Shown here: one piece after another, positions 2,546-26,669 of the stretch | How the letters are laid out: each line of letters starts with the position of its first letter | Position numbering within the stretch: the stretch's first letter is position 1 | Source of the DNA: Candidatus Bathyarchaeota archaeon | GTDB taxonomy: Archaea; Thermoproteota; Bathyarchaeia; Bathyarchaeales; Bathycorpusculaceae | DNA: 26,669 nt | Direction: 5' to 3' | Assembly (NCBI GenBank): GCA_963739305.1 | Contig: CAVTZU010000027.1 | Span: 1-26,669, forward strand | The notes under the pieces: generated by a model | Told to the model about the DNA's origin: nothing | Seen by the model: the letters and a program-made list of their open reading frames with translations, nothing else | Databases searched by the model: none | Made by a program: the position numbers and the translations under genes

Positions 2546-2554
2546 CGCGCGCGC
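2546..2554. repeat. GCGCGCGC junction motif
   Basis: CGCGCGCGC 12 nt after the stop at 2533. Confidence 0.8.
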
Positions 2555-2596
2555 ATATTGGGATAGCAATCATTTTCTTGACGAATTATTTGCGTG

Positions 2597-2767
2597 CTAA
2601 CCTAACGAGCAAGTCCACTCTATCTTCCCATGGTCAACCTCGTCAACTGCGTAGCAGATGAACGACAAAGATCCGCAGGAACACAGAATATGAGATTTGC
2701 GCTATTTCCCAACTTTGTCCGAATGTTTTTTCTTCTTTTGAACATTCTTCTTTTTCAACGAAGGCAT
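2597..2767 (-). pseudogene. Small basic Cys-containing (zinc-ribbon-like) ORF with an internal TAG
   Basis: MPSLKKKNVQKKKKHSDKVGK*RKSHILCSCGSLSFICYAVDEVDHGKIEWTCSLG*; GGAG upstream; internal stop at 2702-2704. Confidence 0.45.
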
Positions 2768-2796
2768 ACACTAATCTCCACGAAACAATACTATCT

Positions 2797-2818
2797 ATTA
2801 GCAGTATAGTCTGCTAAT
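2797..2818. promoter_or_regulatory. Inverted repeat, candidate operator
   Basis: ATTAGCAG-N6-CTGCTAAT between a minus-strand TATA-like CTTAAA (~2820-2825) and the ORF starting at 2767. Confidence 0.4.
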
Positions 2819-3025
2819 GTTTAAGAAACTTTTCACTAACTAGAACTCCGAGAGCTGAAAGAAAATGGTGGAGTTGCAGGAGAAATCGTCAAGTTGGTGG
2901 TGAATAGCTGAACTCCACTACTGCGTCGGTACATCTGGACTTGATACTATCCTGTAAAATGGCTTCTCCTTGCCCTAATTTGGCGGACTTGAGCCCGTCT
3001 GAATATGAGCCCGGTCCGGCCCACC

Positions 3026-3035
3026 TAGCGCGCGC
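3026..3035. repeat. TAGCGCGCGC junction motif
   Basis: Perfect copy, intergenic. Confidence 0.8.
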
Positions 3036-3135
3036 TCAACAAAATCAGCGTTTGCAAATATTTACTCAGGTAATTTGAAAAAAGAATATAGAAACTGGGA
3101 TAAAGCTAATCTTAGAATAGAGCTATTGGCTTAAT

Positions 3136-3285
3136 CTAAAATCGACTTCTTCTTGGGGGTGCTCTCTTCGAGTAACACTCTCGGCAGTATACTGGTCTGC
3201 TACCATCGGGCTTGAATGGTACTTCACATTCCTTTCCACATTCAGCGCAAACTGCCTTGTGCATCTCTTTTCTTTCATACGTCAA
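3136..3285 (-). CDS. CxxC-x17-CxxC domain small zinc-finger protein (49 aa; below the ORF-track cutoff)
   Basis: MTYERKEMHKAVCAECGKECEVPFKPDGSRPVYCRECYSKRAPPRRSRF; family-typical CxxCG..CEVPFKP...RPVYCxxC; TTG start with GGAG upstream; TTTATAA on the minus strand at ~3359-3365. Confidence 0.9.
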   Translation of the reverse strand: MTYERKEMHKAVCAECGKECEVPFKPDGSRPVYCRECYSKRAPPRRSRF

Positions 3286-3458
3286 CTCTTTCAACTCCTT
3301 CGCAGTTGCTGTGCAAAAATCACTTCTTACACGCTTCTTTCACCGTTCACATCGCAGCTTATAAACAGCACGCTCAGAATTATGAAGTCGAGACCCATTG
3401 AAATCAGATTCGCAAGCGTTCCACTTCACCGCGATAAGAAGCGCGCAAACGAAATCGA

Positions 3459-3545
3459 CAGAATCAGTAGAACCACCTTAGGCTCGTCCATTCTGTGGAT
3501 CGATCCTGGAAACTGCTCCGGCTCTTACATGGTTTTTGCAAGTTT
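3459..3545 (-). pseudogene. tbp: Degenerate internal fragment of a TATA-binding protein gene
   Basis: KLAKTM*EPEQFPGSIHRMDEPKVVLLIL versus the archaeal TBP signature YEPEQFPGLIYRMxEPKVVLLIF; flanked by GCGCGC (3441-3446) and GCGTGCGC (3548-3555). Confidence 0.75.
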
Positions 3546-3611
3546 GGGCGTGCGCTCAGCTTGCAAGAAAAGCTTTAGTTGTAGGCACGACATTGTTTGT
3601 CTTGTGAGTAA

Positions 3612-4139
3612 ATGAGTGATGTAAATTCTCTCTTTGAAATCAACGATCTGGTGCTGAAGAAGAAGATACTCTCTGTTCGTGAGCACTATGACTTAGAGGA
3701 TAGGACTGGGATGAAATTGGGAGAGGCTGATGGCAATCTCATTCAGCTTCCAGCCAAGTTTGTCGTCATCGATACCCATGGTTCTGAGTTGATGCAAATC
3801 AAAGGAAAAGTACTGTCGCTCCGAACCCAGTTCACTTTTTACGACGATGCAGGCGCGGAACTGGGAACTATCAAGAAGAAGATAGTCAAGCTGATTGGAG
3901 AAGAGTACTGGGTAGAAAAAAACGGAGTTGAATTCATGCGTATCTACGGAGACTTCACGGAGCACAACTATCAGATGGAGATCAACGGGGTTCAGGTCGC
4001 GTCTGTACATAAGAAGTGGGTTTCGGTGCGAGATCAGCTCGGAGTATCAATAACGGGAGAAGCGGATCACCGAGTGGTAATCGGAGCAGTGATCGTGATC
4101 GAACACGTGGAAGTTACGGAGAGGCAGAGTCACCACTAG
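3612..4139 (+). CDS. LURP-one-related/scramblase-like (tubby C-terminal-like) protein
   Basis: Repeated K(K)xLSxR beta-hairpin units, IxGDFxxHNY, VAxVHKKW.SxRD and a C-terminal hydrophobic helix. Confidence 0.8.
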   Translation: MSDVNSLFEINDLVLKKKILSVREHYDLEDRTGMKLGEADGNLIQLPAKFVVIDTHGSELMQIKGKVLSLRTQFTFYDDAGAELGTIKKKIVKLIGEEYWVEKNGVEFMRIYGDFTEHNYQMEINGVQVASVHKKWVSVRDQLGVSITGEADHRVVIGAVIVIEHVEVTERQSHH

Positions 4140-4178
4140 ACTGTGACAAGACTCAACGTTGATTTGGGCAGTTTGCAT

Positions 4179-4187
4179 GCGCGCGCG
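4179..4187. repeat. GCGCGCGC junction motif
   Basis: GCGCGCGCG between the LURP-like and nuclease genes. Confidence 0.8.
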
Positions 4188-4253
4188 AAGCAATCGAAGA
4201 TTCTTCCACAAGTCATAAGAACGTTCAAGAGAGTTTGAAGTTCTTGGTGACAA

Positions 4254-4847
4254 ATGAGCAAGACAGTCATACTGGTTTTGGCATCTATGTTTTTTTTGCA
4301 GTTCATAACCATAGGTTATGGCGCTTCTTCGGGCGAGATAGATGCAACCGCAATAGCTACAAGTGTTCATGATGGAGACACCTTCTACATTGACAAAGAA
4401 TTTCACGGCTCAGATACAATCAGATTAGCCGACATTAATGCTTCAGAACTGGGGCAACCCCTATCTGTTGAAGCGAGAAACTTCCTTTCAGATCTTGTTT
4501 ATCAGAAAACTGTTTACTTGGACATAGATGATGTCTACATATTCGACTATAGTGGAACTGGTGACAGGCTTGTTTGCGTGGTCTACGTGAGCTACAATTC
4601 GACCCATTATGAGAATGTAAACAAAGCGCTCCTGGATGCAGGTCTCGCTGAAAAGAAAGACTACAACAACGAATTTGACCCAAACACCTGGACTCTATAT
4701 GTTTCAAAACAGGAGATTCCAGAGTTTCAGACAATTCTGATTCTGCCTTTATTCATGACAGTAACACTACTCGCAACGACACTCTACAAAAAAAAGTGCG
4801 AAGCTCGGCAAAGCTACTTATGTTTCATGAACAGTCACACGTCGTAG
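4254..4847 (+). CDS. Secreted thermonuclease (SNase-like) with PEF-CTERM sorting signal
   Basis: Signal peptide; DGDT, IRLADINASE, RLVCVVY and NKALLDAGLA motifs; IPEF + TM helix + KKK. Confidence 0.85.
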   Translation: MSKTVILVLASMFFLQFITIGYGASSGEIDATAIATSVHDGDTFYIDKEFHGSDTIRLADINASELGQPLSVEARNFLSDLVYQKTVYLDIDDVYIFDYSGTGDRLVCVVYVSYNSTHYENVNKALLDAGLAEKKDYNNEFDPNTWTLYVSKQEIPEFQTILILPLFMTVTLLATTLYKKKCEARQSYLCFMNSHTS

Positions 4848-4855
4848 CGCGCGCG
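4845..4855. repeat. TAGCGCGCGCG junction motif overlapping a stop codon
   Basis: The TAG of the nuclease ORF is the start of the motif; variant GCGCACGCGC follows at 4917-4926. Confidence 0.8.
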
Positions 4856-5567: not shown

Positions 5568-8500
5568 TTATGGATAGTGTTGGTTATAGTGGCCTGCCAG
5601 GAGTATGGCGTCAAAGATGTCGACAGTGCCGTCTGCATTAAGGTCGGCGTTCGGGTTCCATTTGGGGCTTGTTGGCGTGGAGAGGAATGCAGCTGCAAGT
5701 ATTATGGCGTCGTAGATGTCTACGACTCCGTCGCCGTTGGTGTCTCCAGTTATCTTCGAGATTGTGAGGGTCACGTTTCCGGCGAATGGTGTACCGCCAA
5801 CCAGAGTGCCTGTTATGTTGAAAGTGTTTCTTCCGTAGGTTTTGCCTGTCGCATTAAGAACGTATTGTTCTACTAATGTTCGGTTGAAGTAGACCTTAAG
5901 GTTGTTCTCAGACTCGTTATACACGGGCATGGCAAAATCATAGGGATATAATGTACCGTTCAGCAGAGTGCTGACGGTGTCGTTGAGGCATATGGACCGA
6001 ATATCAATCGCGCTTGCGTTCAGATTTGTCACGCCGTTTCCATCAGGTATTTTTATGTAAGCCGCTATGAGGGTGTCGGTAGTGCGCGGATTAATAGCTG
6101 AAGGCGACAGTTTCAGTTCTGCGCCTACTGCTTGGAGAGGTGCGGGCATTGTCACGGAAACATAATGCACGTCGCTGGTCACGTTGTTGTAGTCGTCGTC
6201 GCCTAACCACTTTGATCGAGCGAAGAATCCACTGAGCACTCCACCATTTCCTAGATCTAGTTGTGGTGTGGTGATGTTTCCTGAGAATTGTCCACTGTCA
6301 ATTATTCTTCCTGTGTATAGGATTTCGGGCACGGTCCAGTTATAGTCATAGACGCCGGTTGAGCTAACGTTCAGGATGCCTACGGTAAACCATGTAGAAC
6401 CATCTAGGCTGTACTGAAAGATAACAGGTCTATTCTGAAGTGCCGGCCCAATTGTGGCGGTCATTTTGATGTCGGTGGCTGCTTCCACGACATCTGAAGA
6501 CACAGACAGCGATAATGAGGGATCTGCTTTGTTCACAATCACTGTTTGAGTTTCACTTGTTCCGTTGCTGTATATTGGATCACCGCTCCAGTACGCTCGA
6601 ACGGAGAAGTTTCCTGCGCTGGGCGGAGTCCATTCTCTAACGAAATACGTTCGATTGGGAGTTGCGGAATCAATGTCGGTCCAAGTTACGTTGTCGATGC
6701 TGTACTGAAGGTAGATTGTGCCGGTGACTATTGAGGAAGGAACCAGCCCAGCCCCAAGCAGGATCGACTGGCCAAAATTAATGATCGGATTCGTCGGGTT
6801 AGTGCCGAACAAAATCGTTACCTGATGCTTTATCACTCTGAAGTTGTCAGTGGTCACGTATTGGACGAAACCTTTCAAGTCAATTACGTACACCTCAACC
6901 TGGAAGATCCCGCCCAAGTGCTGTTCAATCAATGACCCGTAAGTGCTTATTGAGATTGAGTCGTTCCACAATCCGTTCCAGTTGACGGGAACCACGTAGT
7001 CGTTCGTGCAGAAGGCGTTGCCGTCGGGATCCCGCCAAATATAGCGAATTGTCTTAGCGAAAGCCGCGAAACTTGGCGTGATGCTCGTATTTGTCCACAC
7101 CCTGTCGTAATTCGTGAATAGGGTAGGGTCAGGCGAATAGACGAAATTTGAACCGACTTGCCCGAATATGTGATGGGATCCAGCCATAGTCTCACCACGT
7201 ATATGAATTATCGGCAGGTACATCGAAGTGGAGTTTATGATACTGCGGATATACTCGGGATATGTAAACCATATACGGGCGTTGTACAGAGTGAAGATTG
7301 GGCTCTTAATGTCATAGACTCCCACTCTTAGTTGGTCAGTATCGCTTGAATTAGGAAAGATGCACACCCAGTAGCTTCCAGGAGCTTCAATCTGACCTAC
7401 GTTAATGTAGCTCAGGTAGTCGGGTGGTCCGGGCGGTGTAGTAGTGAAGAACTCACCGTAGCGGTGAGTTGCCCTGTACAATACGTTGATACCGCCCGAG
7501 GTAGAATTCAAATACCATATTTCGACCAAAAATTGCCTGGTTCCATCTCCCGTGTAGTAGGCTGGAAAACCTATTTGTTCAACCTTGAAACCTTGAACAG
7601 GGGGGTTATAGAACTCTGCGGCCCAGCCAATGATGGCGGCGTGAGGGTCCGTGGGTTCACGCCAATACTCATTTGGTACACCGCCCGCCGGCTCCGTACT
7701 GTCGAATTCTTGAATCCCAGGAACATCGGGTGCGACTCTCAAGTTTACAGTCCCGTTTGAGGCTTTATACTCACCGTTTCCAGAATAGGTAGCCCTGACG
7801 GTGTAGTTACCATCGCTTGCTGGCACCCACCAGTAAGAAAAGGCCGCCCCCTGCAAGTAGGGAGTACCTATCGGCTGCCACGTACCGCCTCCATCGAGAC
7901 TGTACTCCAATACGATTCTTCCTTGTATGAGGTTGAACCAAGAGCTGTAGTCTGAGTGACTGTTGAGGAAGTTGCATGTGACTGAACCCGCAAGATAAGT
8001 GCCGCTGCCCGTCATAATTGCATAGTTTGGCAGCTGGAGAGTAGTCCTTGTGTTGGCCAATCCGAATTTTCCCTTCCAGCTTTTTATCACTTCGTCTTTC
8101 AGCGTATAGCTGGTGCTTTCAATGCCCAGTAGATATTCGAGCCAGCCTGCAATGGCAAGACCGGCGTGTATTCTAAAGCCCAGATCGACGGACCAGACCG
8201 CCAAGTCAGGGTCATCGGCCGAATAATAGTTTATCAAGGCGTGCACGTACGGTTCAAACCCGACCCATGGACCGACGCTTTCGAAGAACATCAGGCTAAG
8301 GTCAAACTCGACGCCTGCATCCGCCTCCAAGTACAGTTTGATTTCGTTAGCACCCCACGTGTGGGAACTGTAAGAGCTGAATTCGGCAATGGGACTCCAC
8401 CCGTCTTTAATGTCCCACTGTATGCCGGATTTGAAGTAGTAGCCAATTATGTACTCAAAGTAGAAGTCGAGCTCACCATTCATTTCCAGATGGACGTAGG

Positions 8501-13674: not shown

Positions 13675-14090
13675 CCATCAAAGTTTCAGAAAAGACAATT
13701 GCCATGATAAATGCTCTGCCGAAAAAGTATGGAGACTACCTATTCAGCATGAACTCTCATGCTTTGGATACCACATTTACCCACACCTGAAAAGCACTGG
13801 CAAACAAGCTACAAAACCCAAACCTCTTGCAAATACACTTTCACACGCTGAGACATTGGCGAGGAAAGAAAGAGTTTCGTAAGCACAAGAACATCTACGA
13901 CGCCAAATACATCTTGGGACACAAGTCAATCCTCAGCACTCAAAGATACACCGAAGGCGAAGAATTTCAGGGAGACGAATACTATTCGGCAGAAGCCAAA
14001 ACCAAAGAAGAAGCGAGACAACTCATAGAAGCAGGATACAGCTACGTGACTGACATAGATGGTGTTAAACTGTTTAAGAAGCCAAAGTGA
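13674..14090 (+). pseudogene. Tyrosine integrase, C-terminal remnant
   Basis: TIKVSEKTIAMINALPKK...FTHT*KALANKLQNPNLLQIHFHTLRHW...LGHKSILSTQRY: HxLR, LGH and catalytic Tyr present; in-frame TGA at 13788-13790; N-terminal part absent. Confidence 0.85.
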
Positions 14091-14198
14091 ATGCCATGCG
14101 GAAAATAGGAAGGTTCTTTTCTAGAGAGGAAGGTTTTAATCAAAAACAACTTATTAATGAGGTAATCCCCAAAACATCTTGAAACAGTAGCCCGGGAA

Positions 14199-14298
14199 AG
14201 CCCGGTGGAGGGAAGAAGATCTTTCCGCCGAATGTAGTGGACAAGCATAGTGGCCTTTGGAGCCATTGACGAGAGTTCGAATCTCTCCCGGGCTACCA
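14199..14298 (+). tRNA. tRNA-Gln(UUG) with a 24-nt intron at position 10/11 (14209-14232) and encoded CCA
   Basis: Acceptor AGCCCGG/CCGGGCT; anticodon arm GTGGC-CTTTGGA-GCCAT; T arm GAGAG-TTCGAAT-CTCTC; removing 14209-14232 restores the D arm; TATA-like TTATTAA at 14151-14157. Confidence 0.92.
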
Positions 14299-14433
14299 CT
14301 CTCCAGAGTTTGATTATACTTTCTGCCGAGGGGTTTCGCTCATTTCCCCTATTTTTCTTTTTGTGAGCACCTTGGCGTTGGAATAGGCGGTTTTTTGTTG
14401 GAGACGGGCGGAAGTAAAAATTCTGGTTCTCGG

Positions 14434-17379: not shown

Positions 17380-18768
17380 ATGTTGTTTTTGAAGAGAAGA
17401 TTCGTTTCGGCAATAGCGTTTACACTACTTTTAGTAGGGATGTTTACCGTGGCATTTAACATTCAAGTAGTCAAGGCTGATGTTGGGACGATTTACATTT
17501 GGGCCGATGGAAGCATATACCCGCCGACAGCACCAATCTCAACCGTTGACAACGTCACTTACACTCTAACTGGCAACATCACTAGCAACGCTGAGGGAAT
17601 TATCGTTGGAAGAAGCAACATAATCTTGGATGGAAATGGATACATGCTTCTAGGAGGAGAAAATGGCAGTCGAGGGATAGATCTGTCTTTTACAGCCAAT
17701 GTGACGATCAGGAACATGCAAATAAGAAACTTCTTCAATGGCATCTACTCCTACAATTCTTCAGACAACACAATTTCTGGAAATGAGTTGGTGGCAAATA
17801 GTTGGGAGGGCATTTCTCTCGATACTTATTCAAACAACTTCATCATTTCAGGAAACAACATAACAGGCAACCATGGAGGCATCGGGCTTTACTATTGTCT
17901 AGATTGTAACAACAGTATTTCTAGGAACAACATAAAAGACATGGAATACGGCATCTTTATCGACTTCACGTCATACAGCAGAATTTTTGAAAATAGCATA
18001 GCAGACAATGGGAAAGGCTTGTGGCTTGCAACCTCCTCAAACAACACGATATATCATAATAACTTCATGAACAACACAGTTCAGGTGGCTATCAGTAACA
18101 AGGGTCAAAATACTTGGGACAATGGTCATGAAGGCAACTATTGGAGTGATTACAACGGAACAGACATCCGGAGCGGACCATACCAGAACGAGACTGGAAG
18201 CGACGGAATAGGCGACACGCCTTACGTCATCGATGCGTACAATAAGGACAGGTACCCACGCGGGGTTTTCAGGCTCGCAGGAGACTTGAATGGGGATGGT
18301 ATAGTAGACATTCTTGACGCTATTCAGGCTGCATCAGCATTCGGGTCTAGCCCTGGAAATCCCAATTGGAACAGTCAAGCAGACCTCAACAACGACGGCA
18401 TCATCGACATTTTTGACATCATCATATTGGCAGGCAACTTCGAAAAGACCACCGGGCAACAGGCTGACGTCATGCTCTACAAAGCGAACGTGAACTTCTA
18501 CTTCGACAACGTTAGCAGCGTCAAGAGAATCGACGTTGACATTGGCAACTCAGGAACCACAGACACAACGATAACGACGCTCTACATTGGGCTTTCAGCC
18601 TCGAATCTTGTAAACCAGACAATTACCCCGCAATCACTCGTGCACGGCGGAATAGCAAGGATAACTATTAATTATAATTGGACAACAGGAACGACATACT
18701 ACTTCAAAGTGTTTTCTCAACAAGGTCAGACAATCAATTGGCCAGAACAAGCACCGACTACGGCGTAA
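17380..18768 (+). CDS. NosD-like beta-helix protein with dockerin and an extra C-terminal pilin-like beta domain
   Basis: Signal peptide; beta-helix repeats; GNYWSDY...DGIGDTPY; GDLNGDGIVDILD...ADLNNDGIIDIFD; ~100-aa tail with IGNSGT and WTTGTTYYFKV. Confidence 0.85.
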   Translation: MLFLKRRFVSAIAFTLLLVGMFTVAFNIQVVKADVGTIYIWADGSIYPPTAPISTVDNVTYTLTGNITSNAEGIIVGRSNIILDGNGYMLLGGENGSRGIDLSFTANVTIRNMQIRNFFNGIYSYNSSDNTISGNELVANSWEGISLDTYSNNFIISGNNITGNHGGIGLYYCLDCNNSISRNNIKDMEYGIFIDFTSYSRIFENSIADNGKGLWLATSSNNTIYHNNFMNNTVQVAISNKGQNTWDNGHEGNYWSDYNGTDIRSGPYQNETGSDGIGDTPYVIDAYNKDRYPRGVFRLAGDLNGDGIVDILDAIQAASAFGSSPGNPNWNSQADLNNDGIIDIFDIIILAGNFEKTTGQQADVMLYKANVNFYFDNVSSVKRIDVDIGNSGTTDTTITTLYIGLSASNLVNQTITPQSLVHGGIARITINYNWTTGTTYYFKVFSQQGQTINWPEQAPTTA

Positions 18769-19252
18769 AGACACTGATTCTGAGTTTCGAAGACTTCGGA
18801 CGGAAGCCACCCCTCATCTTCTAAAAGAAGTCAAAAACCAAATAAACAAACAGTGACTCACGCATAGCATCTCGAAAGGTGCCCGGTTTGCTACCGTTCG
18901 ACGCTGCAAGAACTGGCCTCCGTTGGAGCCACATTATTTGCCTCGGGTACCTGAAGGGGAGGGGAGAAACTTTTTAAGTTGAATCAGGGCTTAGTTATTC
19001 TTGCAGTGCCTACTCATTATTGAGTAGGGTTCTTTTCGCCGCCTTCGAGAGTGGCGCTAGAAGGAAATAGTGAGTGTGATGTTGATTTGTGTCATAGACG
19101 AAGTGAAGCAGCGATAGCTAGGCGCAGGGCTCGTTCCATAATCTTAGCGTGCAGTTTTCGGGATATCCGTAAATCTGAGACTGTTTGCATGGTTAACCGC
19201 GTTGACATCGCTGGTCTCCTGCCTGGACCTGTCGATTACTATCTAGTCCCAG

Positions 19253-19735
19253 ATGTCACAAAAGGCGAAATCCTCGTTGACAGTCGTGGTTCAGGGAGCT
19301 TTCAGCGGTGAAAAAAGCGGGGGGTCCTCAATTTTGGGCGGTAAGACGGCTCGCAAAATTGTGGTAGCCCGTCGTATTTCCCAACTTCGGAGAAGTGTGA
19401 GGTTTGATACTGACCGGTTGAGACGGAAGACTATTGGTAGTCTTGAGCAGTTGTTTGATGTTGCCACTGATTTTGCAAAGGGAAGGATCAAGTGGCAGAC
19501 GCAGGACGGTAAGGCCTCACCGGTTACGATTAAGCAGAGGCAGATGTGGGCTCGTATCGCTGCGTACGTCGCTCAAATCATGAACACGATTGCGAACGGG
19601 ATTGATGAACGACAGATTGACAAGGATTTGGCCTTGCTGGAGAAGCTTGTGAATGAAGCAACGGCAAAAAACAACGGTTCACACTCTAGACCGGAACATG
19701 GCCAAGAAGCGAACGCTCCCAAGGCTCCCAGATGA
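19253..19735 (+). CDS. Helical hypothetical protein overlapping the terminase gene (possible small terminase subunit)
   Basis: Basic, helical; directly upstream of and overlapping terL; start uncertain; function inferred from position only. Confidence 0.55.
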   Translation: MSQKAKSSLTVVVQGAFSGEKSGGSSILGGKTARKIVVARRISQLRRSVRFDTDRLRRKTIGSLEQLFDVATDFAKGRIKWQTQDGKASPVTIKQRQMWARIAAYVAQIMNTIANGIDERQIDKDLALLEKLVNEATAKNNGSHSRPEHGQEANAPKAPR

Positions 19736-20161
19736 TAAAGTCGAGTTTTTCGAACAGGTTCTGAAGATTAAGCCCTTTCCGTACCAAGCTTCGTTTCTAC
19801 TGGATCCTGCTGCTCTCAAAGTGTTGCGGTGGCCCAGGCGTGCCGGCAAGACGATGACGATGGCCGGAGATGACCTTCATTTTGCGATGCATAACGGAAA
19901 CGCGAAAGTCATCGTTACTATGCCGAAGTATCAGCAGATCAAAGAGATCTATTTCCAAGCTTATCATGAACACCTTGCGCGGATGGACCGAGACATCTAC
20001 GAGGCTTACATTGAATCTGAGTTGCAGACGATAATTCGCTTCAATAACGGAACGATTATTCTGGCCGAGACGCCTGAGCCATTCACGATCCGTGGCCACG
20101 GACCCAAGAAGATCAGTATTGATGAGATGAATTTCATTCGGCAGGACGAGGATCTATGGCT

Positions 20162-20171
20162 TAGCGCACGC
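20162..20171. repeat. Junction motif variant TAGCGCACGC
   Basis: At the apparent terminase breakpoint. Confidence 0.7.
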
Positions 20172-20264
20172 TTCTTTTTCACAGTATGGTTTGCAGGAGT
20201 GTGCCATTGGAAGGGAAAGTGGAACATTAGATTTATTAGTGGTACTGGAAAGGCATTAAGGTTA

Positions 20265-20276
20265 AGCGCGCGCTAG
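20265..20276. repeat. AGCGCGCGCTAG junction motif
   Basis: Supplies TAG stops on both strands. Confidence 0.8.
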
Positions 20277-20398
20277 ACCTCAATGACTGAATGACATCTA
20301 GGACAATTCCTAGGATTTCCTTCTGTCTTAAACTCCAGCCCACAGTTCTTACATCTGCAGTTCTTTGCTCTACCATATTTTCTGTATCTTTCACTCAT
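20273..20398 (-). CDS. 41-aa zinc-ribbon protein (below the ORF-track cutoff)
   Basis: MSERYRKYGRAKNCRCKNCGLEFKTEGNPRNCPRCHSVIEV; CxxCG..F and CPxC; AAGGA upstream; stop inside the motif. Confidence 0.75.
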   Translation of the reverse strand: MSERYRKYGRAKNCRCKNCGLEFKTEGNPRNCPRCHSVIEV

Positions 20399-20410
20399 TC
20401 TTTTTCCTTC

Positions 20411-20476
20411 TTAGCGCGCGCGTTGAATTGGGTGGTCAATAACGAATGCAAGTTCCTTGTTTTCTTCGGTTACCAT
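20411..20476 (-). pseudogene. Probable 5' fragment of an ArsR-like HTH gene, cut at the motif
   Basis: MVTEENKELAFVIDHPIQR|AR*; resembles the HPxRxxI start of ArsR-type wHTH; minus-strand GAAAAGGTTAAAG promoter-like element ~30 nt upstream. Confidence 0.4.
20412..20422. repeat. TAGCGCGCGCG junction motif
   Basis: Perfect copy. Confidence 0.8.
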
Positions 20477-20580
20477 ATCAGAATATCAGACTGGTTGACA
20501 CAAGCTCTTTAACCTTTTCAAGGTTTGTCTGAGTAGACGTTGCCGTCGAAGGATTTGACCAGGACCAAAAAACAAGAAAA

Positions 20581-20592
20581 AGCGCGCGCTAG
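20581..20592. repeat. AGCGCGCGCTAG junction motif overlapping the GyrI-like stop
   Basis: Minus-strand TAG (20589-20591) is part of the motif. Confidence 0.8.
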
Positions 20593-20990
20593 AGAATAGG
20601 CAGCAGTAGGATAACTTCATTTTGACTCCTGTAGAACTCGATGTACCAGCGATTAGGATCGCGCCTGTACTCCTGCTCCATCGATTTGAAAGTTTCTCCG
20701 ATTATCTCGACTCTACTGGCAAAGTTCTCGATCTTCTCTCTGGCGAATTTGCCACCAGGAATCGTCCACGTCGGCAATCCAAGCGCTTTTGGTTCTTCCT
20801 CGTTAATGATGGCTACACATGCACGGTACACTTTGTCTTGATCATAATAAGCACCATACATCTTGCGTCCTTTAAGACTTGGAAGATTAGACTCCAGCTT
20901 AGACCAAGCTGTGCCAACTCCAGAAAGACCGCCTTTCGCTTCCATATACATCACTTTCACCGGTTCCAAAGTCACTTCGATCCTAGCCAT
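20589..20990 (-). CDS. GyrI-like small-molecule-binding protein
   Basis: AW.KL, YG.Y, YRACV, TIPGGKFA and IEFY motifs. Confidence 0.85.
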   Translation of the reverse strand: MARIEVTLEPVKVMYMEAKGGLSGVGTAWSKLESNLPSLKGRKMYGAYYDQDKVYRACVAIINEEEPKALGLPTWTIPGGKFAREKIENFASRVEIIGETFKSMEQEYRRDPNRWYIEFYRSQNEVILLLPIL

Positions 20991-21054
20991 TCAAACACCA
21001 CTTTGCCAATCACTTGATAATCGGATATATTTCATATATCCTCTTCGTCTTGTC

Positions 21055-21065
21055 TAGCGCGCGCT
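21055..21065. repeat. TAGCGCGCGCT junction motif
   Basis: Between divergent genes. Confidence 0.8.
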
Positions 21066-21132
21066 GTCCATCCTCTTCAGCCGCCAGTAGATGCCAAAAA
21101 AGACTTTAATGAAAATTGGTTTAGTTACAATT

Positions 21133-21744
21133 ATGAAAACAAGACTTTTGGCGATAGTGGGCTCCCACAGAAAAGACGGCAACTGTTACGCATTAGCCAA
21201 GTCTGTCCTCGAGTCTACAAGTTCCAAGTTCAGAATAATCCAGTTAGCAAGCAAGAAAATTGAGTTTTGCGTTCTCTGCGAAAAATGTGTGCACGAAGAC
21301 TGTGTCTTGACGGATGATCTAAACCAGATTCTCGCAGAGATGAAAAAAGCCGATGCGATAATGTTCATATTCCCTAAGTATCTTTTGGCTTCCTCAAAAT
21401 TCTTGGCTTTCTTGGAAAGACTGGACACCATTGTTCATATGCGAAAACACAAAGGCTACAAACACACCTTCGCAGAACCAAACTATAGGCTCTTACCGAA
21501 GCAACAACCTTTCTGCGTTTTTGCCTCGTCAGGCACGGGCAGATTCAAGAAGGAAACACTGCGTACTGTCGTAGAGTATATCGAATCTCTTGGGCTGACA
21601 TTAATCTCACACGATCGTCCTCCCTTCATAGCGGTCAACGTCAGAACAGGTGACGAAAAGGGCGAAGTCCTAAAGAACAAAGCAGCGTTGAAACAGTGTA
21701 CAGAACTGACAAACAGAGTTATCAAGTCAATCAAGAAAGAATAA
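21133..21744 (+). CDS. Flavodoxin-like NADPH-dependent FMN reductase / iron-sulfur flavoprotein family
   Basis: IVGSHRKDGN; CxxCxxCxxxxC...DD; ATG at 21133 lies ~25 nt after TTTAAT; stop TAA runs into variant GCACGCGC (21745-21752). Confidence 0.8.
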   Translation: MKTRLLAIVGSHRKDGNCYALAKSVLESTSSKFRIIQLASKKIEFCVLCEKCVHEDCVLTDDLNQILAEMKKADAIMFIFPKYLLASSKFLAFLERLDTIVHMRKHKGYKHTFAEPNYRLLPKQQPFCVFASSGTGRFKKETLRTVVEYIESLGLTLISHDRPPFIAVNVRTGDEKGEVLKNKAALKQCTELTNRVIKSIKKE

Positions 21745-21813
21745 GCACGCGCTTCCTTTGTTACACGCTGAGAATTCCACAAACATTAATAGAATAAGAC
21801 GCAGAACAAGCCC

Positions 21814-22485
21814 ATGATGAAGCGTGTACTAGTTTTCGCAGCACATCCTGACGACGATCTAATCGGGTGCGGCGGTAGCCTGGCAAAACACGTGAAACTG
21901 GGAAATCACGTCTCTGTATGTTACGTATCTTCTGGAGAAGCAGGGAGCCTTGAACACTCAAAAAAGGAACTGACACGAATAAGAGAAGATGAAGCAAAGA
22001 AAGCTGCAGAGATCATTGGTTTCACAGACATCATTTTCCTCAGAAACCGAGACGGATATCTGGAATATAACGAACCAAACCTGACGCAACTTGTGGATCT
22101 GATCAGAAAGAAGCAGCCGCATGTTGTTTATGTTCATCATCGTTTAGACGCCCATGAAGACCATAAGGTGACTTGTCGGCTTGTGAATGAAGCAATAGCA
22201 AGAGCTAGTGTACCAGTGTTCCAAGAATATAAGGGGGAGCCGTGGTCAGTGGAAACTGTCCTGGCTTACGAAGTCTGGACGCCGCTTTTCGAGTTCAATT
22301 ACGTCGAGGATATCTCTGAATTTGTGAGCCTCAAGATTGCCGCTCTGAGAAAGCATCAGTCGCAGACCAAGATCATCCGCTACGACGAAGCAGCCGAGGG
22401 TCTTGCGCGGTACAGGGGAGCGATCACTGGAAGAGGAAAATACTGCGAAGTGTTTGCAGTGAACAAGGTCACAGAGTTGTTCTAA
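21814..22485 (+). CDS. PIG-L/LmbE family deacetylase
   Basis: AHPDD, SSGEAG, R..EA, DAHEDH and K..AL..H.SQ motifs. Confidence 0.9.
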   Translation: MMKRVLVFAAHPDDDLIGCGGSLAKHVKLGNHVSVCYVSSGEAGSLEHSKKELTRIREDEAKKAAEIIGFTDIIFLRNRDGYLEYNEPNLTQLVDLIRKKQPHVVYVHHRLDAHEDHKVTCRLVNEAIARASVPVFQEYKGEPWSVETVLAYEVWTPLFEFNYVEDISEFVSLKIAALRKHQSQTKIIRYDEAAEGLARYRGAITGRGKYCEVFAVNKVTELF

Positions 22486-22511
22486 AAGCCTCTAATTGCG
22501 ATTTTTGGAAT

Positions 22512-22518
22512 CGCGCGC
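22512..22518. repeat. CGCGCGC junction motif
   Basis: In the 46-nt gap between convergent genes. Confidence 0.65.
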
Positions 22519-22531
22519 TCTTGATCCGGGA

Positions 22532-23458
22532 CTACTTGGAAAGGAGTCTCCAAGAGAGGACGATTCCAATTACAGATAGTACAATCGCAAACCCAATCAA
22601 TACCCCAAAGTCTAGCAAAAGACTGTTCGAACCTGTCGCGCCTATCAACAGCTGTCTTACTGCATCATTAGCATAACTGACTGGGTTGACCTTCACGACG
22701 TCTTGAAGCCAGGTTGGCATTATCGTTACAGGGAATATTGCGTTGCTTGCGAACAGCAGGGGCAGGTTGATAAGGTTGATGATAGCCACTTGTGTCTGCC
22801 AATCACTTGATCTCAACGCGAGCATAGTGAATAACGCTGACAGCCCCGTCGCCATGAGGAAAATGATGACGAATGTGCCCGCAATTCCGACGACGGTGAA
22901 ATGACCTGTATCCATCCCGAGTATTATTGCGATAACTAGAACTATGGCCGATTGAATCAACGACCTACCCACACTTTGGAGGACTTTGCCCATCACAATC
23001 GCTCCGCGCGCCACAGGCGTGCTTAGCGCCTTGTTCAGGAAACCGAACCTGCGGTCAAACACAACCGACATTCCGCTAAACGCGGAAGTGAACAGGACGA
23101 CAAAGGCAATCATTCCGCAAGCCAGGAATGAAAAGTAGCTGGTCGTGCCGAATAAGTTCAAAAGAATTGCGTTTTGCTCCGCTTGCGTGCCCCCGGCCTT
23201 TGCGATGAACTCTCCAAAGTTCACGGCTTTGCCGAACAACGCGAGCCAAACTACCGGTTGGATTAGCGATGTGATTAGCTGGACTGGGTTCGTGTACCAC
23301 TTTCTCAAATCTCGGTTCGTTAGCGCCCATAACCCATGCAGCGGACTCCTGCTCAGTTTTGGAGCCGCCCTGACTACCATCTGCTTCTCCGCAGAAACCT
23401 CTTCAGGCTGTTCCCCTATTGCTGTTTCCTTGCTTGTTGTCGGTTTGATTTTTTCCAT
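22532..23458 (-). CDS. ABC-2 type exporter permease (DrrB-like)
   Basis: About six TM helices; DRRFGFL...LSTPV; MPTWLQ...NPVSYA; alternative GTG start at 23464. Confidence 0.9.
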   Translation of the reverse strand: MEKIKPTTSKETAIGEQPEEVSAEKQMVVRAAPKLSRSPLHGLWALTNRDLRKWYTNPVQLITSLIQPVVWLALFGKAVNFGEFIAKAGGTQAEQNAILLNLFGTTSYFSFLACGMIAFVVLFTSAFSGMSVVFDRRFGFLNKALSTPVARGAIVMGKVLQSVGRSLIQSAIVLVIAIILGMDTGHFTVVGIAGTFVIIFLMATGLSALFTMLALRSSDWQTQVAIINLINLPLLFASNAIFPVTIMPTWLQDVVKVNPVSYANDAVRQLLIGATGSNSLLLDFGVLIGFAIVLSVIGIVLSWRLLSK

Positions 23459-23473
23459 ACTCACTCCCGCATT

Positions 23474-24502
23474 TTACGATCTTGCTCTTCTCACCGTTAC
23501 GCGTTGTCTAAACATCTGCATCCTGTCAGCTTCTTCTTCCCTCAGACTGCGGCCAGTAAATTCCAGATATGCCTCGTCCAAGGTTGGCTTCGTCAACGAG
23601 ACTTTCGTCACGTGAAGCCCTTTGGATCGAATTAGATCCGTGATTTGTGGGGAGGCTTCCTCTCCGAGCTCCACCTTTATACGATAGTTGTTATCGTTCT
23701 TCTGAACGTTCTTTACCAATTTGATGTTAGCAATATCGGATGAAATGTCCGGCTCTGTCTCCTTGAGTGTAACCACGATGACGTCTCCGCCGATGCTTTC
23801 CTTCAACTCTTCAGGTGAGCCAATTCTTATGATGTGACCGTGATCGATTATGGCTATTCTGTCGCAGAGTGAGTCGGCTTCTTCGAGATAGTGAGTTGTC
23901 AGAAAAAGAGTCATGTGGTATTCATTTTTCAACATTTTGATGTATTTCCAGACCACAGTGCGTGTTTGAACGTCGAGACCGAGCGTTGGCTCATCCAAGA
24001 ATAGCAATTTCGGATAATTGATTAAACCACATGCGAGCTCCAGTCTCCTGCGCATTCCTCCTGAGTATGTGCTCACCTTCCTCTTTGCAGCGTCTTGAAG
24101 CTCTACCAGCTTCAGCAGCTCTTGTGCGTGTGGTTTTGAATCACCTCTTGGTATTCCGTAGAGATCAGCGCAGAGGAGGACGTTGTTAATTCCAGTCATG
24201 TCCTCGTCAGCAGTGTACTCCTGCGGGACAACTCCAACATTTCTTCGCACCTCGTTCGCATCTTTGAATATGTCATAGCCGCAGACCACTGCGTTTCCTG
24301 ATGAAGGCTTGATCAGGGTCGTAAGCATGTTGATGGTAGTGGTCTTGCCTGCTCCGTTAGGGCCAACGAAACCAAAAATTTCCCCCGTTTTGACTTCAAA
24401 GCTTACGTTATCTACGGCCTTCAACTTGCCGAAGGCTTTTGAGAGATTCTCAACCTTCGCAATAATCAGAGGCATTGTAGGTCCGGCTTGCGTTGCAGAC
24501 AC
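23474..24502 (-). CDS. ABC exporter ATP-binding subunit (DrrA-like)
   Basis: GPNGAGKTT, YSGGM, LFLDEPT, TTH; GTG at 24502 with GGAG RBS and TTTATAA ~30 nt upstream. Confidence 0.92.
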   Translation of the reverse strand: MSATQAGPTMPLIIAKVENLSKAFGKLKAVDNVSFEVKTGEIFGFVGPNGAGKTTTINMLTTLIKPSSGNAVVCGYDIFKDANEVRRNVGVVPQEYTADEDMTGINNVLLCADLYGIPRGDSKPHAQELLKLVELQDAAKRKVSTYSGGMRRRLELACGLINYPKLLFLDEPTLGLDVQTRTVVWKYIKMLKNEYHMTLFLTTHYLEEADSLCDRIAIIDHGHIIRIGSPEELKESIGGDVIVVTLKETEPDISSDIANIKLVKNVQKNDNNYRIKVELGEEASPQITDLIRSKGLHVTKVSLTKPTLDEAYLEFTGRSLREEEADRMQMFRQRVTVRRARS

Positions 24503-24568
24503 GTTTGCTCGCTCCTGATTTTTGTCTATTATAAAGCATTGATTCGATTGATATGCGCTATAAAAACA

Positions 24569-24578
24569 TAGCGCGCAC
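24569..24578. repeat. Junction motif variant TAGCGCGCAC
   Basis: Just upstream of the ABC operon promoter. Confidence 0.6.
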
Positions 24579-24641
24579 GACACCAAATCAGGTCTGCAGA
24601 GAACAAGAAGCACATTCAAGAGTTGGCTTAGGTTCAGAAGT

Positions 24642-24818
24642 TCAGGGAAAACCAAAAGAGAGGATTTCTACGCACGTGTCACTTGGATTAGAGTTTGTCA
24701 CTGTCACATTTGCCGTTGCTTGTATGCTAATGTTGTGAAGTGCAATTCTGATATCTATAACCTTTGTAAGCAAAAAGGGAAAGACCACTGTTCCATTTAT
24801 GCCAACTTCTGTTAGAGT
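24642..24818 (-). pseudogene. Start-less 3' fragment of a secreted glycoprotein-like gene
   Basis: TLTEVGINGTVVFPFLLTKVIDIRIALHNISIQATANVTVTNSNPSDTCVEILSFGFP*; beta-rich with NGT/NIS/NVT sequons; begins 8 nt from the motif. Confidence 0.4.
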
Positions 24819-24826
24819 TTAGTAAT

Positions 24827-24834
24827 CGCGCGCG
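24827..24834. repeat. CGCGCGCG junction motif
   Basis: Perfect copy upstream of the acyl-CoA dehydrogenase gene. Confidence 0.8.
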
Positions 24835-24941
24835 GGCGAGCTTGTGCAAGGAGATTTTTCCTTTATGACTTGGGTCCGTCATCATTTCAGTGCACGCACA
24901 AAGGGAACTCTTTTATCAGCGTTTTCTTGATAGAATGATCG

Positions 24942-26117
24942 GTGAGATTCTTGAGCTTTGAGCTAACTCCGGAGCAGAAGATGATAGTAAGTGCGGCCTG
25001 TGATGTTGCGAAAGATTTCGATCCAGAATACTGGCGTAACAGGGACAAGAACCACGAGTTTCCTGATGATTTTTGGAAGGCTTTGATCGACGCCGGCTTC
25101 GTCGGTATTGTTGTGCCTGAAAAGTATGGAGGAGGTGGCATGGGACTATATGAAATGCTTTTGGCAATGGAGACTCTCACTTCTGAAAGCTGCGGGCTGG
25201 CAGGCACATGGTTTCTGTGCCTTACATCAGTTTTTGGCGGTTTGTCCCTTCTCAAGCATGGAAACGAAGACCAAAAAGACAAGTATTTGCCAAGAATCGT
25301 TAAAGGAAGCGAGTTTTGTTTGGGTCTCACCGAGCCGGATGCTGGCACGAACACTCTAAACATCCAGACCACTGCGGTGGAAGATGGAGACCACTTCATC
25401 GTAAATGGAAGAAAAACTCTCATCTCAGGGGCCGACAGAGCGAAAGGAATGGTCCTGATCACCCGGACGACTTCCTTGGATAAAGCGCCGAAGAAAACTA
25501 TAGGTCTCAGCCTCTTCCTTGTGGATCTTCCTAACCCGGCGGTGGAAGTTATTCCGATAGAAAAACACGGAATCAACTACTCAAAAACATGCGATGTTTA
25601 CATTAGTGACCTCAAGATACCTCGAGAAAACCTTCTCGGCGAGAAGGACAAAGGCTGGTATCTCATACTGGACACTCTTAACCCTGAACGAATGTCTTTT
25701 TCAGTCGCTGCTGGAGGACTGGGCATCTTGGCAATCAAAAAGGCCGTCGAACACGCTAAGCAACGAAAGGTTTTCGGAGCACCCATCGGCTCCTATCAAG
25801 CGCTGCAGTTCCCGCTCGCGGAGGCAAAAGCAAAGATTGAGGCTGCCAGACTGCTGACGTACAAGTCAGCATGGCTCTACGACAAAGGACAACCCTGCGG
25901 CGCGGAAGCAGCCATGGCAAAGGTTGCAGCTGAAGAAGCAGGCTATCAAGCCGTCTACCATGCGATGCAGACGTTCGGAGGCTACGGCTACACAGTTGAT
26001 TACGACGTGGAACGCTGGTGGAGAGAGGTGAACCTAATCAGGTTGGCGCCAGTGACCCATCAGATGGCCCTCGCATTCATAGGCGAACATGTCCTGGGCC
26101 TGCCAAAATCCTACTGA
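24942..26117 (+). CDS. Acyl-CoA dehydrogenase family protein
   Basis: PEKYGGGG, LTEPDAGTN, NGRKTLIS, R..FG.PI..YQ and QTFGGYGY motifs; start at 24942 or 24951. Confidence 0.93.
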   Translation: MRFLSFELTPEQKMIVSAACDVAKDFDPEYWRNRDKNHEFPDDFWKALIDAGFVGIVVPEKYGGGGMGLYEMLLAMETLTSESCGLAGTWFLCLTSVFGGLSLLKHGNEDQKDKYLPRIVKGSEFCLGLTEPDAGTNTLNIQTTAVEDGDHFIVNGRKTLISGADRAKGMVLITRTTSLDKAPKKTIGLSLFLVDLPNPAVEVIPIEKHGINYSKTCDVYISDLKIPRENLLGEKDKGWYLILDTLNPERMSFSVAAGGLGILAIKKAVEHAKQRKVFGAPIGSYQALQFPLAEAKAKIEAARLLTYKSAWLYDKGQPCGAEAAMAKVAAEEAGYQAVYHAMQTFGGYGYTVDYDVERWWREVNLIRLAPVTHQMALAFIGEHVLGLPKSY

Positions 26118-26204
26118 ACCCATGCACCTGACGGTAGAAAATTCAATTCATTCTTTCGCGTTAAGCATTAGCGTTTCCTGAACTGGGGTTTTCCGGCGCA
26201 GAAT

Positions 26205-26597
26205 CTACGGTATCTTCTCTTGCCAGTGCTCAACCACTTTTCCGTCAGGCCCAAACTTGAAGAAGAATACGGGTTCGGTGTTCACTTCTTTTTGTGTGGC
26301 GGGGCTTCCGAGAAACGGTGCTTGGTTCGTGGCGGTAAAGGTCGTGTGAGCGTCTACCGTGTCGCCTTCAGCGTGCAGTTCGTCCACGTGCAAATGAATG
26401 TCCCTGAACGCCCAACGGAAGTCGTTGACGAATCTTTTGAAAGCTTCAATTCCTTTGAGGTCGTCTGGTACTCTTGGATTGTGGACAACGATGTTTTTTG
26501 AACAGGTTTCGTCAATAACCGAAAGTGCGCCCTCGTTAAATGTCCGGTCAAGCAACTTGAACGCAACTTGCTTCTTTTCTTCCGATGACATTTCCAT
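26205..26597 (-). CDS. SnoaL-like ester cyclase (NTF2 fold) family protein
   Basis: G.EAFK.F....R.AF.D, AEGDTV, FLG.PAT.K and DGKVVEHW motifs. Confidence 0.85.
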   Translation of the reverse strand: MEMSSEEKKQVAFKLLDRTFNEGALSVIDETCSKNIVVHNPRVPDDLKGIEAFKRFVNDFRWAFRDIHLHVDELHAEGDTVDAHTTFTATNQAPFLGSPATQKEVNTEPVFFFKFGPDGKVVEHWQEKIP

Positions 26598-26669
26598 CTT
26601 TTCACCATCATGATCAGAAATTGCGGCTTAGGTAGTAGCAATGCAAATTTGACCCTTTAAGCTTATCCT

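Follow-up and report, generated by a model that had tools for sequence, protein, structure and literature searches.

The window studied here is a stretch of 26,669 nt from a Candidatus Bathyarchaeota archaeon and corresponds to the entire contig C27 of the archaeal bin G000 (2.317 Mb, 36 contigs). Within it, a mini-array of ~900 bp (20162-21065) is divided by five copies of an 8-bp GC palindrome, GCGCGCGC or a close variant, into four tiny segments. As judged from alignments with related genomes and metagenome contigs, these segments are modules that have been re-assorted into other orders, combinations and genomes, and many of the seams lie at the GC core. We consider it rather probable that the motifs represent a genus-specific intergenic palindrome at the junctions of independently re-assorting modules and that the (GC)n core is the site at which they cross over. 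Throughout the genomes of one genus, an 8-bp palindrome would then mark the joints between single-gene modules, and the genus appears to move genes about as cassettes in a way that has not been described before. Gene gain and loss in archaea are poorly known outside a few model species, and the sole archaeal cassette system described is the bacterial-type integron.

Layout of the mini-array

Exact copies of GCGCGCGC are located at 20266-20273, 20414-20421, 20582-20589 and 21057-21064, and the copy at 20164-20171, which forms the left junction of the mini-array, is the variant GCGCACGC with one mismatch. This confirms the five motifs of the original prediction, four of them as exact copies, together with the four tiny segments that they bound, which measure 94 bp (segment 1, 20172-20265), 140 bp (segment 2, 20274-20413), 160 bp (segment 3, 20422-20581) and 467 bp (segment 4, 20590-21056). 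The whole window contains 28 matches to GCGCGCGC with at most one mismatch, compared with 5.25 ± 2.76 in 100 dinucleotide-preserving shuffles of the window (largest 11; 0/100 reach 28).

Segment 1, on the plus strand, is a copy of a ~100-bp non-coding repeat, labelled EL100 (nhmmer profile match 20162-20278). The motif at 20266-20273 lies in the context TTAA-core-TAG, and its last C is overlapped by the TAG stop of a complete 41-aa zinc-ribbon gene on the minus strand (20273-20398), which forms segment 2 together with a 15-nt leader; its ATG is only 15 nt from the next motif (20414-20421), which separates segments 2 and 3. Segment 3, likewise on the minus strand, consists of a non-coding stretch and an open reading frame (ORF) start of 18 codons, which has its ATG at 20476 and runs into the motif at 20414. 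Segment 4 carries a complete 133-aa GyrI-like (Cass2-like) gene on the minus strand (20589-20990) with its own 66-bp upstream region, the module spanning 20589-21056 when the stop is included, since its TAG overlaps the motif at 20582-20589. The two complete genes ending in the motif are therefore as predicted. The last exact copy, at 21057-21064, stands between the divergent GyrI-like and FMN-reductase genes, the latter being a flavodoxin-like FMN reductase gene (21091-21744, Pfam FMN_red) in the next cassette (21065-21752). Three modules of the mini-array are thus on the minus strand and the FMN-reductase module is on the plus strand. The motif series runs on rightward as degenerate copies at 21745-21752 (GCACGCGC), which ends the FMN-reductase cassette, and at 22511-22520 (TCGCGCGCTC), which is the edge of an ABC-transporter module. 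On the left, the mini-array is preceded by an N-terminal fragment of a terminase large-subunit gene (19653-20163, plus strand; Pfam Terminase_6N, PHROG phrog_2).

Modules recur separately in congeners and metagenomes

The mini-array was compared with 10 other genomes of the genus (G001-G010), among them the complete chromosome G001 (one 2.35-Mb contig); the searches for the motif and for the 100-bp repeat also covered 20 genomes from 19 other genera of the family and order. Conservation of the ~900 bp as one block was found in 0/10 congeners, and homology running through the motifs was not found. Segments taken singly are shared at 92-99% identity versus 65-78% for core genes, a difference that points to active, fine-grained gene exchange. 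Segment 2 alone (20273-20412) is present at 99% in G002, segments 2 and 3 together (20268-20591) at 93-97% in three places of G009, and part of segment 1 with segment 2 (20233-20421) at 96% in G005. Two of the G009 copies diverge directly past the 20582 motif. The FMN reductase (21094-21738) recurs at 92% in G002:C21 only, with other flanks and with GC cores near both ends, and the sole match to the GyrI-like gene, in G004, is at 68%. The ABC module (22515-24522) is shared at 83-86% with three genomes (G001, G008 and G010), the homology starting from 22515/22527 at the degenerate core 22511. Similar patterns are seen in other arrays. In a second array of the window, a segment with a LURP-one-related (LOR) gene (3553-4175), bounded by cores 3548 and 4179, recurs at 79-88% in five genomes with different neighbours, and in arrays C26 (12.0-15.3 kb, next to an integrase gene) and C9 (54.2-59.6 kb) each module matches a different contig or genome at 84-97%, the core genes on these loci being at 65-78% identity. 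The cassette-like organisation proposed in the original prediction is supported by these comparisons, as segments recur separately, in other orders and genomes, and on sequence grounds we regard the term as an apt description of the organisation.

A further comparison used 72 public metagenome contig loci found with the 22-nt core of segment 1 taken from the window, of which 12, chosen for carrying the zinc-ribbon gene, were aligned with the window. One locus (L086) has the window order over 20158-21441 at 96%, and another (L083) keeps it to the contig end. Four loci (L041, L071, L109 and L110) match to 20589 and then differ, two (L051 and L070) match to 20419-20422 and then differ, and three (L064, L074 and L077) stop at contig ends. 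The order in L081 is repeat, GyrI-like gene (96% identical), zinc-ribbon gene and repeat, with segment 3 absent. L081, L051 and L070 lack segment 3, which accompanies segment 2 at 3 places of G009 and at 4 metagenome loci. At the base level, shared sequence ends at the core, and the core at one and the same junction (20414) reads (GC)3, (GC)4, (GC)5 or GCACGCGC in different contigs.

Contigs from four sequencing runs (four studies; peat, sediment and wetland) were also aligned to 18500-24000. Many of them diverge at 20265/20270, 20590, 21738 and 21752. Summed contig depth over 20156-21811 is several-fold to >100-fold that of 19604-20155 and 21812-22547 (the terminase and PIG-L parts) within the same query; these sums pool every organism present and do not give copy numbers. 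Two contigs, one from run X1 and one from run X3, contain a joint from 21064 to 20172 with 2 extra letters. Besides a circle formed by exchange between neighbouring repeats, a linear order such as that of L081 would give this joint. A 241-nt contig, which may stem from the source sample, spans the terminase-to-motif junction without a difference.

The palindrome is abundant, extragenic and genus-specific

The motif has the palindromic consensus TA(GC)4TA. Genome-wide, GCGCGCGC occurs 359 times, equal to 327 non-overlapping sites distributed over the 36 contigs, or about one per 7 kb. Counts of (GC)n runs for n = 2 to 6 are 5610, 415, 297, 28 and 2, so that the 297 runs of (GC)4 represent a roughly ten-fold excess over the ~31 predicted from the decay between n = 2 and n = 3. 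Flanking T/A is found at positions -2/-1 and +1/+2 in 45-50% of 323 sites, and no conservation was detected beyond these two flanking bases (323 sites; 644 flanks), which speaks against an extended site or terminal repeat.

Placement was assessed with our own crude calls of ORFs of at least 90 aa, which cover 83% of the genome. Among the 327 sites, 215 are intergenic, 39 at stops, 9 at starts and 64 deep in ORFs; 263 (~80%) thus lie outside or at the ends of ORFs. The sites are also clustered, with 63 gaps of at most 500 bp versus 22.7 for random placement. Arrays of at least four sites number 12 in the genome, two of which are in the window. The second one (2547-4854) has motifs at 2547, 3028, 3548 (1 mismatch), 4179 and 4847 that bound segments of 473-660 bp.

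The extended word AGCGCGCGCT is present in 82 copies in this genome, in 7-114 copies in 10/10 congeners and in 0-1 copies in the 20 genomes of other genera, with the reversed word as control at 0-4 copies. In the complete chromosome G001, TAGCGCGCGC gives 104 forward and 106 reverse matches versus 9 and 13 for the control, and these range over the whole chromosome (10 kb to 2.27 Mb). By these counts, TA(GC)4TA is a genus-specific palindrome. A literature search of sources other than subscription journals returned no paper on this motif, and the papers retrieved for GCGCGCGC as a genomic palindrome are unrelated by title and abstract.

Rearrangement breakpoints and the core as a proposed crossover site

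Two recent events within the bin have all their breakpoints on the motif. Between C2 and C3 (96% identical flanks), a cargo-only insert of 4.2 kb with two surface-protein genes is bordered on each side by GCGCGCGC, of which C3 keeps a single copy at the empty site. Between C13 and C17 (98% identical flanks), a 2.0-kb piece is swapped for a 2.9-kb piece, with the four breakpoints 0-1 bp from the motif. These are 2 of the 7 indels or replacements found between collinear stretches of at least 90% identity in the bin. In three arrays, 11/43 distinct homology ends are within 12 bp of the motif, ~12 times the expected share (~2%). Over the whole genome, 162/2450 ends of intragenomic repeats, which are not independent of one another, lie within 12 bp of GCGCGC, compared with 35.3 ± 6.4 after local shifting.

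The modules of the mini-array would be the cut terminase, the 100-bp repeat, the zinc-ribbon gene, a piece with a promoter and a mini-ORF, the GyrI-like gene and the FMN-reductase gene, and the (GC)n core itself would be the crossover site. As the core is a perfect palindrome, any copy could pair with any other in either orientation, and insertion, deletion, replacement and inversion could all arise from one type of site. A crossover in the core would also account for cassettes on both strands, for a core length of (GC)3 to (GC)5 at a single junction, for genes cut at the core and for the spread of the motif with acquired modules. The terminase gene cut at 20164 and a GNAT fragment joined to a TrmO_N domain at C9 58695 are consistent with the core as a cut point. 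Alternating GC is a classical former of Z-DNA, and instead of a dedicated enzyme, breakage and short-homology joining at such a Z-DNA-prone repeat might suffice. If the core is the crossover site, it would be an orientation-free, many-site alternative to the attC sites of integrons and would provide a concrete target for an enzyme search.

Several results weigh against a crossover in the core. Many breakpoints are elsewhere, with 5/7 of the intragenomic indels and replacements and 32/43 of the homology ends not on the motif, 2/4 further indels among the G001, G008 and G010 loci without any motif, and segment 2 of G002 without a GC core at the breakpoint on its start side. Moreover, gene-sized homology must end intergenically anyway, and part of the coincidence with the motif is therefore expected. 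At one locus, the empty site in G008 is without a core whereas the 170-bp insert in G010 has one at each end, which is easier to reconcile with an element that supplies its own ends than with crossover at a site already in place. In addition, no enzyme for the site was found. The integron integrase IntI is a tyrosine recombinase with an insertion of its own, and its profile TIGR02249 reached at best 34.9 bits in the whole genome versus a cut-off of 265 (0/14 matches pass), the genome having 15 ordinary PF00589 matches. The Y1 transposase (PF01797) that is associated with repetitive extragenic palindromes (REPs), known as RAYT, gave 0 matches among the 6 candidates scored, in a search whose control was positive in 6/14 known genomes. 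A C5 methyltransferase was not found in this genome and is present in 2/10 congeners. Tyrosine recombinases number 0-15 per genome, are common throughout the order and do not follow the motif in their counts, and to our knowledge the known tyrosine-recombinase sites are much longer than 12 bp.

A more specific version of the crossover model is possible, and we put it forward only tentatively: the genus, made up of uncultured archaea of sediment and peat, may have a new kind of gene-capture system in which a dedicated protein recognises the 12-bp TA(GC)4TA at hundreds of sites and exchanges the intervening DNA in either orientation. Single genes would then circulate in the genus as cassettes without IntI, attC hairpins or a single platform, and the 100-bp repeat, perhaps with the 41-aa zinc-ribbon protein, would be an accessory part.

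The 100-bp repeat

Segment 1 (profile region 20162-20278) has 20 copies in this genome and contains a highly conserved core of 22 nt. The repeat was found in 9/10 congeners and in 0/20 genomes of other genera. In 11/19 copies it starts 2-35 nt past the stop of a co-oriented gene, and the genes ahead of it are unrelated, including SDRs, a metallo-beta-lactamase-fold protein, a creatininase-like protein and a STAND-type ATPase, among others. Across 54 unique metagenome contexts, the flanks are likewise unrelated, and conservation reaches ~55 nt upstream of the core start and 43 nt downstream of it. The zinc-ribbon gene follows the repeat in the geometry of the window in 12/75 metagenome occurrences, complete to 41 aa in 10 and truncated by the contig end in 2. 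The 22-nt core had 0 matches in viral contigs. Four indels were found among the compared loci, none of which involves the repeat, and neither an empty site nor a target duplication was seen among them.

Two other identities of segment 1 were tried and rejected. A coding role was discarded because reading frames and stops disagree between copies. A structured RNA was discarded because RNAalifold gave no consensus fold on either strand for 29/31 copies, two rows with large insertions having been dropped; the fold of the single copy pairs its two GC cores, with z-scores of -1.2 on the plus strand and -3.0 on the minus strand. Segment 1 is thus best described, from its copies, as a genus-specific non-coding dispersed repeat of ~100 bp. 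Outward polymerase chain reaction from the core or from this repeat would be a simple handle for the cassette pool in peat and sediment DNA.

One further locus, G000:C10:111093-116182 (L114), carries the 100-bp repeat as two pairs that are oppositely oriented about a 3-kb centre. Creatininase-like and SDR genes are part of the same, larger inverted duplication as these repeat pairs.

Competing explanations

The palindrome could instead be mainly a punctuation signal for expression or chromatin, either an insulator or 3'-end element that provides stops in both directions or a sequence bound by a genus-specific DNA-binding protein. Genes would then move by other means, and homology would end near the motif only through its position between genes. 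We consider this unlikely, although its placement relative to genes is suggestive. The motif adjoins stops, 22/233 adjacent 3' ends being 0-2 nt away, and keeps off starts, 60/219 adjacent 5' ends lying at 40-79 nt and 10 under 20 nt. With TAG or TAA as flanks it provides stops on both strands, the reading as 5' region, ORF and 3' motif can be applied to every module of the window, and the 32/43 homology ends off the motif are also in keeping with such a signal. However, its frequency between divergent genes, a setting without gene ends (0.11 per region), is about equal to that in convergent (0.13) and tandem (0.10) intergenic regions, a poor fit to a pure terminator or a pure promoter. The copy at 21057 stands between divergent genes, and the one at 20414 precedes a start codon by 15 nt. 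Furthermore, the core is a place where genes are cut, and the empty site of the 4.2-kb indel retains exactly one copy. In addition, a 12-nt self-complementary word forms no stable looped hairpin, and archaeal terminators are oligo-T tracts.

Somewhat more doubtful is the view that the palindrome and the 100-bp repeat are selfish elements, similar to REPs or to miniature inverted-repeat transposable elements (MITEs), which insert between genes and later act only as short homologies for ordinary recombination and as breakage hot spots. Hundreds of extragenic, lineage-specific, GC-rich palindromes are indeed what is seen with REPs. The repeat, confined to the genus of the motif, has the GC core upstream in 25/54 and downstream in 33/54 of its unrelated contexts, and the 170-bp insert of G010, with a core at each end where G008 has none, would fit an element of this kind. 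On the other side, no Y1 (RAYT) transposase was found in this 97% complete genome, only TA is conserved beside the core, so that a REP head and an extended terminal repeat are both absent, the compared loci yielded no empty site of the repeat, and the DNA between cores consists of unrelated cargo genes rather than one element.

An assembly or binning artefact, in which chimeric joins formed at a repeat in a mixed-strain metagenome bin, is very improbable: the bin (97% complete, 7.8% contamination, full-length archaeal small-subunit rRNA) does mix close strains, with many contig ends duplicated at 95-99% identity, 7/72 contig ends lie within 100 bp of a motif versus 1.0 expected, and the 100-bp repeat is long enough to mislead a short-read assembler, but motif-bounded modules are present in 10 other assemblies, one of them a single 2.35-Mb contig, in the 72 metagenome loci, which were assembled independently, and among the contigs of the four runs (four studies), the independent contig L086 reproduces 20158-21441 at 96%, the 241-nt contig covers the terminase-to-motif junction without a difference, and the 8-bp core is far shorter than assembler words. 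The motif predicts assembly breaks in these archaea, and it shows the positions of accessory genes.

Comparison with known systems

The arrays resemble integrons in several respects. They consist mostly of single-gene modules with a repeated site at each 3' end, the same module occurs in other arrays, orders and species, and the cargo consists of small accessory proteins, including a Cass2-like one. An attC site is a set of imperfect inverted repeats of ~55-140 bp with R'' and R' cores (GTTRRRY), and integron cassettes are co-oriented and mostly promoterless. The site here differs in being a perfect GC palindrome of 8-12 bp and not an imperfect hairpin of 55-140 bp with R and L boxes, and GTTRRRY was found within 20 bp of 22/322 sites, compared with 23.7 ± 4.5 after shifting, which is no enrichment of attC cores. 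Also unlike an integron, there are ~330 sites chromosome-wide and no single attI platform, both strands are used, and many modules have their own upstream regions. The archaeal integrons and clusters of attC sites lacking integron integrases (CALINs) use bacterial-type attC sites and IntI, according to Ghaly et al. 2022 (PMC9668308). By its sequence features, the mini-array is not an integron: IntI, attC and a platform were all missing from the results, and cassettes shared between arrays were the one trait found among the integron features tested. The most integron-like layout seen is at C26:10877-15331 (L037), where a gene for a 361-aa tyrosine recombinase (97% in G009) is followed by 11 GC cores in 3.3 kb; this recombinase is far from IntI.

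REPs are imperfect palindromes of 20-40 nt with a conserved head that are associated with RAYT transposases in bacteria. Similar to REPs and the bacterial interspersed mosaic elements (BIMEs) that they form, the motif occurs as hundreds of lineage-specific, GC-rich extragenic palindromes near gene ends, which are clustered and linked to rearrangements. It differs in having neither an extension nor a head, and no Y1 transposase was found. With both RAYT and an extended palindrome with a head absent in these searches, the motif is not a REP/RAYT system. There is also a likeness in form to HIP1 (GCGATCGC), an 8-bp cyanobacterial palindrome that is lineage-confined and hugely over-represented, with an unsettled function and proposed links to recombination. 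Both are short, perfect, over-represented and lineage-specific palindromes, but the word is a different one, which makes this a likeness and not membership. HIP1 is also far denser and common in genes, whereas the motif here is ~80% extragenic and located at module junctions. The 100-bp repeat, for its part, can be compared with MITEs and Correia-type repeats, which are non-coding, ~100 bp long, present in tens of copies in unrelated intergenic contexts and equipped with inverted ends. It shares their size, non-coding nature, copy number and unrelated intergenic contexts. It departs from them in having no inverted ends other than the GC cores, which about half of the copies possess, and in its co-oriented position 2-35 nt past the preceding stop in 11/19 copies.

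The shuffling of modules with ends at short non-coding repeats also resembles the promoter early stem-loop (PeSL) cassettes of T4-type phages. As described by Arbiol et al. 2010 (PMC2839356), PeSLs flank non-essential genes in hyperplastic regions, indels and replacements between relatives end at the repeats, and exchange between neighbouring repeats can yield small circles. PeSLs are phage units of a promoter plus a terminator that recombine by homology over tens of bases, whereas the sites here are 8-12 bp long and lie in an archaeal chromosome.

Genes and fragments carried by the modules

The zinc-ribbon protein of segment 2 has only sub-threshold zinc-ribbon matches in Pfam, and the exact 41-aa protein is encoded on 10 contigs. 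The adjacent segment 3 had been taken to hold a gene start cut short by the motif. There is indeed an ATG at 20476 with 18 codons ahead of the motif, the frame continuing as RAR-stop through the 20414 copy, but the cut gene itself is in doubt. The 18 residues recur in 11 other loci at 80-94% identity, and in each of the 7/11 loci checked, a motif (GCACGCGC in L081) is next to the start side of the zinc-ribbon gene. This recurrence, with the motif kept beside the zinc-ribbon start, suggests that the ORF may be a conserved mini-ORF rather than a cut gene.

For the GyrI-like protein of segment 4, Pfam gave a Cass2 match under the cut-off (E 8.6e-4), and homologues are named GyrI in their sources. 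The AlphaFold2 model has a mean predicted local distance difference test (pLDDT) score of 92.5 and a predicted template modelling (pTM) score of 0.85. With the model as query, Foldseek gave 42 matches in the PDB at E ≤ 0.001, headed by STM3175 (an albicidin-resistance protein), VCH_CASS2 (3gk6, a cassette protein of a Vibrio integron), SAV2435, BmrR and SbmC/GyrI. The predicted structure thus confirms the GyrI-like fold. Against genome contigs, the sole match of the protein is a 28% relative in a Lachnospiraceae metagenome-assembled genome. A PDB sequence search also aligned residues 20-125 with residues 515-614 of Cas12j-type proteins (E 6.5e-4); this weak match was set aside for the fold search.

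The terminase ORF to the left of the mini-array (19653-20276) covers the first ~170 residues and the ATPase part only, and is cut at about residue 171 at the degenerate motif. Its residues 61-175 match positions 5-121 of the 215 in Pfam Terminase_6N, residues 3-169 match positions 238-381 of the 807 in PHROG phrog_2, and the alignment to a paralogue on C20 ends at residue 174. With the ATPase present only in part and without the C-terminal nuclease domain, the ORF is, by sequence, a fragment and not a working gene.

Genes of the other arrays are of a similar kind. The second array of the window contains the LOR gene (3612-4139) and a staphylococcal-nuclease-like (SNase) gene (4254-4847). In array C9, the ORF at 58190-58810 (L038) has an internal core at 58695 that separates a GNAT fragment of 37 residues from the TrmO_N domain fused behind it, and the ORF recurs in G009 (93%) only as far as this core. 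Cargo across arrays includes GyrI-like/Cass2, glyoxalase, SnoaL and EthD proteins and a flavodoxin-like reductase.

Other features of the window

At 13707-13955, a tyrosine-recombinase fragment with an internal TGA adjoins a tRNA fragment (Rfam tRNA positions 9-63; none by ARAGORN), and a search of the window against Rfam at the gathering threshold gave nothing beyond a tRNA fragment. Together with the cut terminase, these recombinase and tRNA fragments look like the remains of an integrated virus or element. The stretch at 14186-14362 recurs in many congeners at 88-100%. At the right-hand side, 22534-26669 is duplicated at 97% on G000:C22:37482-41614, a strain variant, and C22 ends 16 bp from the degenerate core 22511. 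Four short stretches, at 2632-2792, 3146-3340, 3463-3546 and 5568-5747, recur many times in this genome and in congeners at 73-91%. The one at 3463-3546 terminates at core 3548, and that at 5568-5747 is the dockerin-coding end of a gene of 1402 aa.

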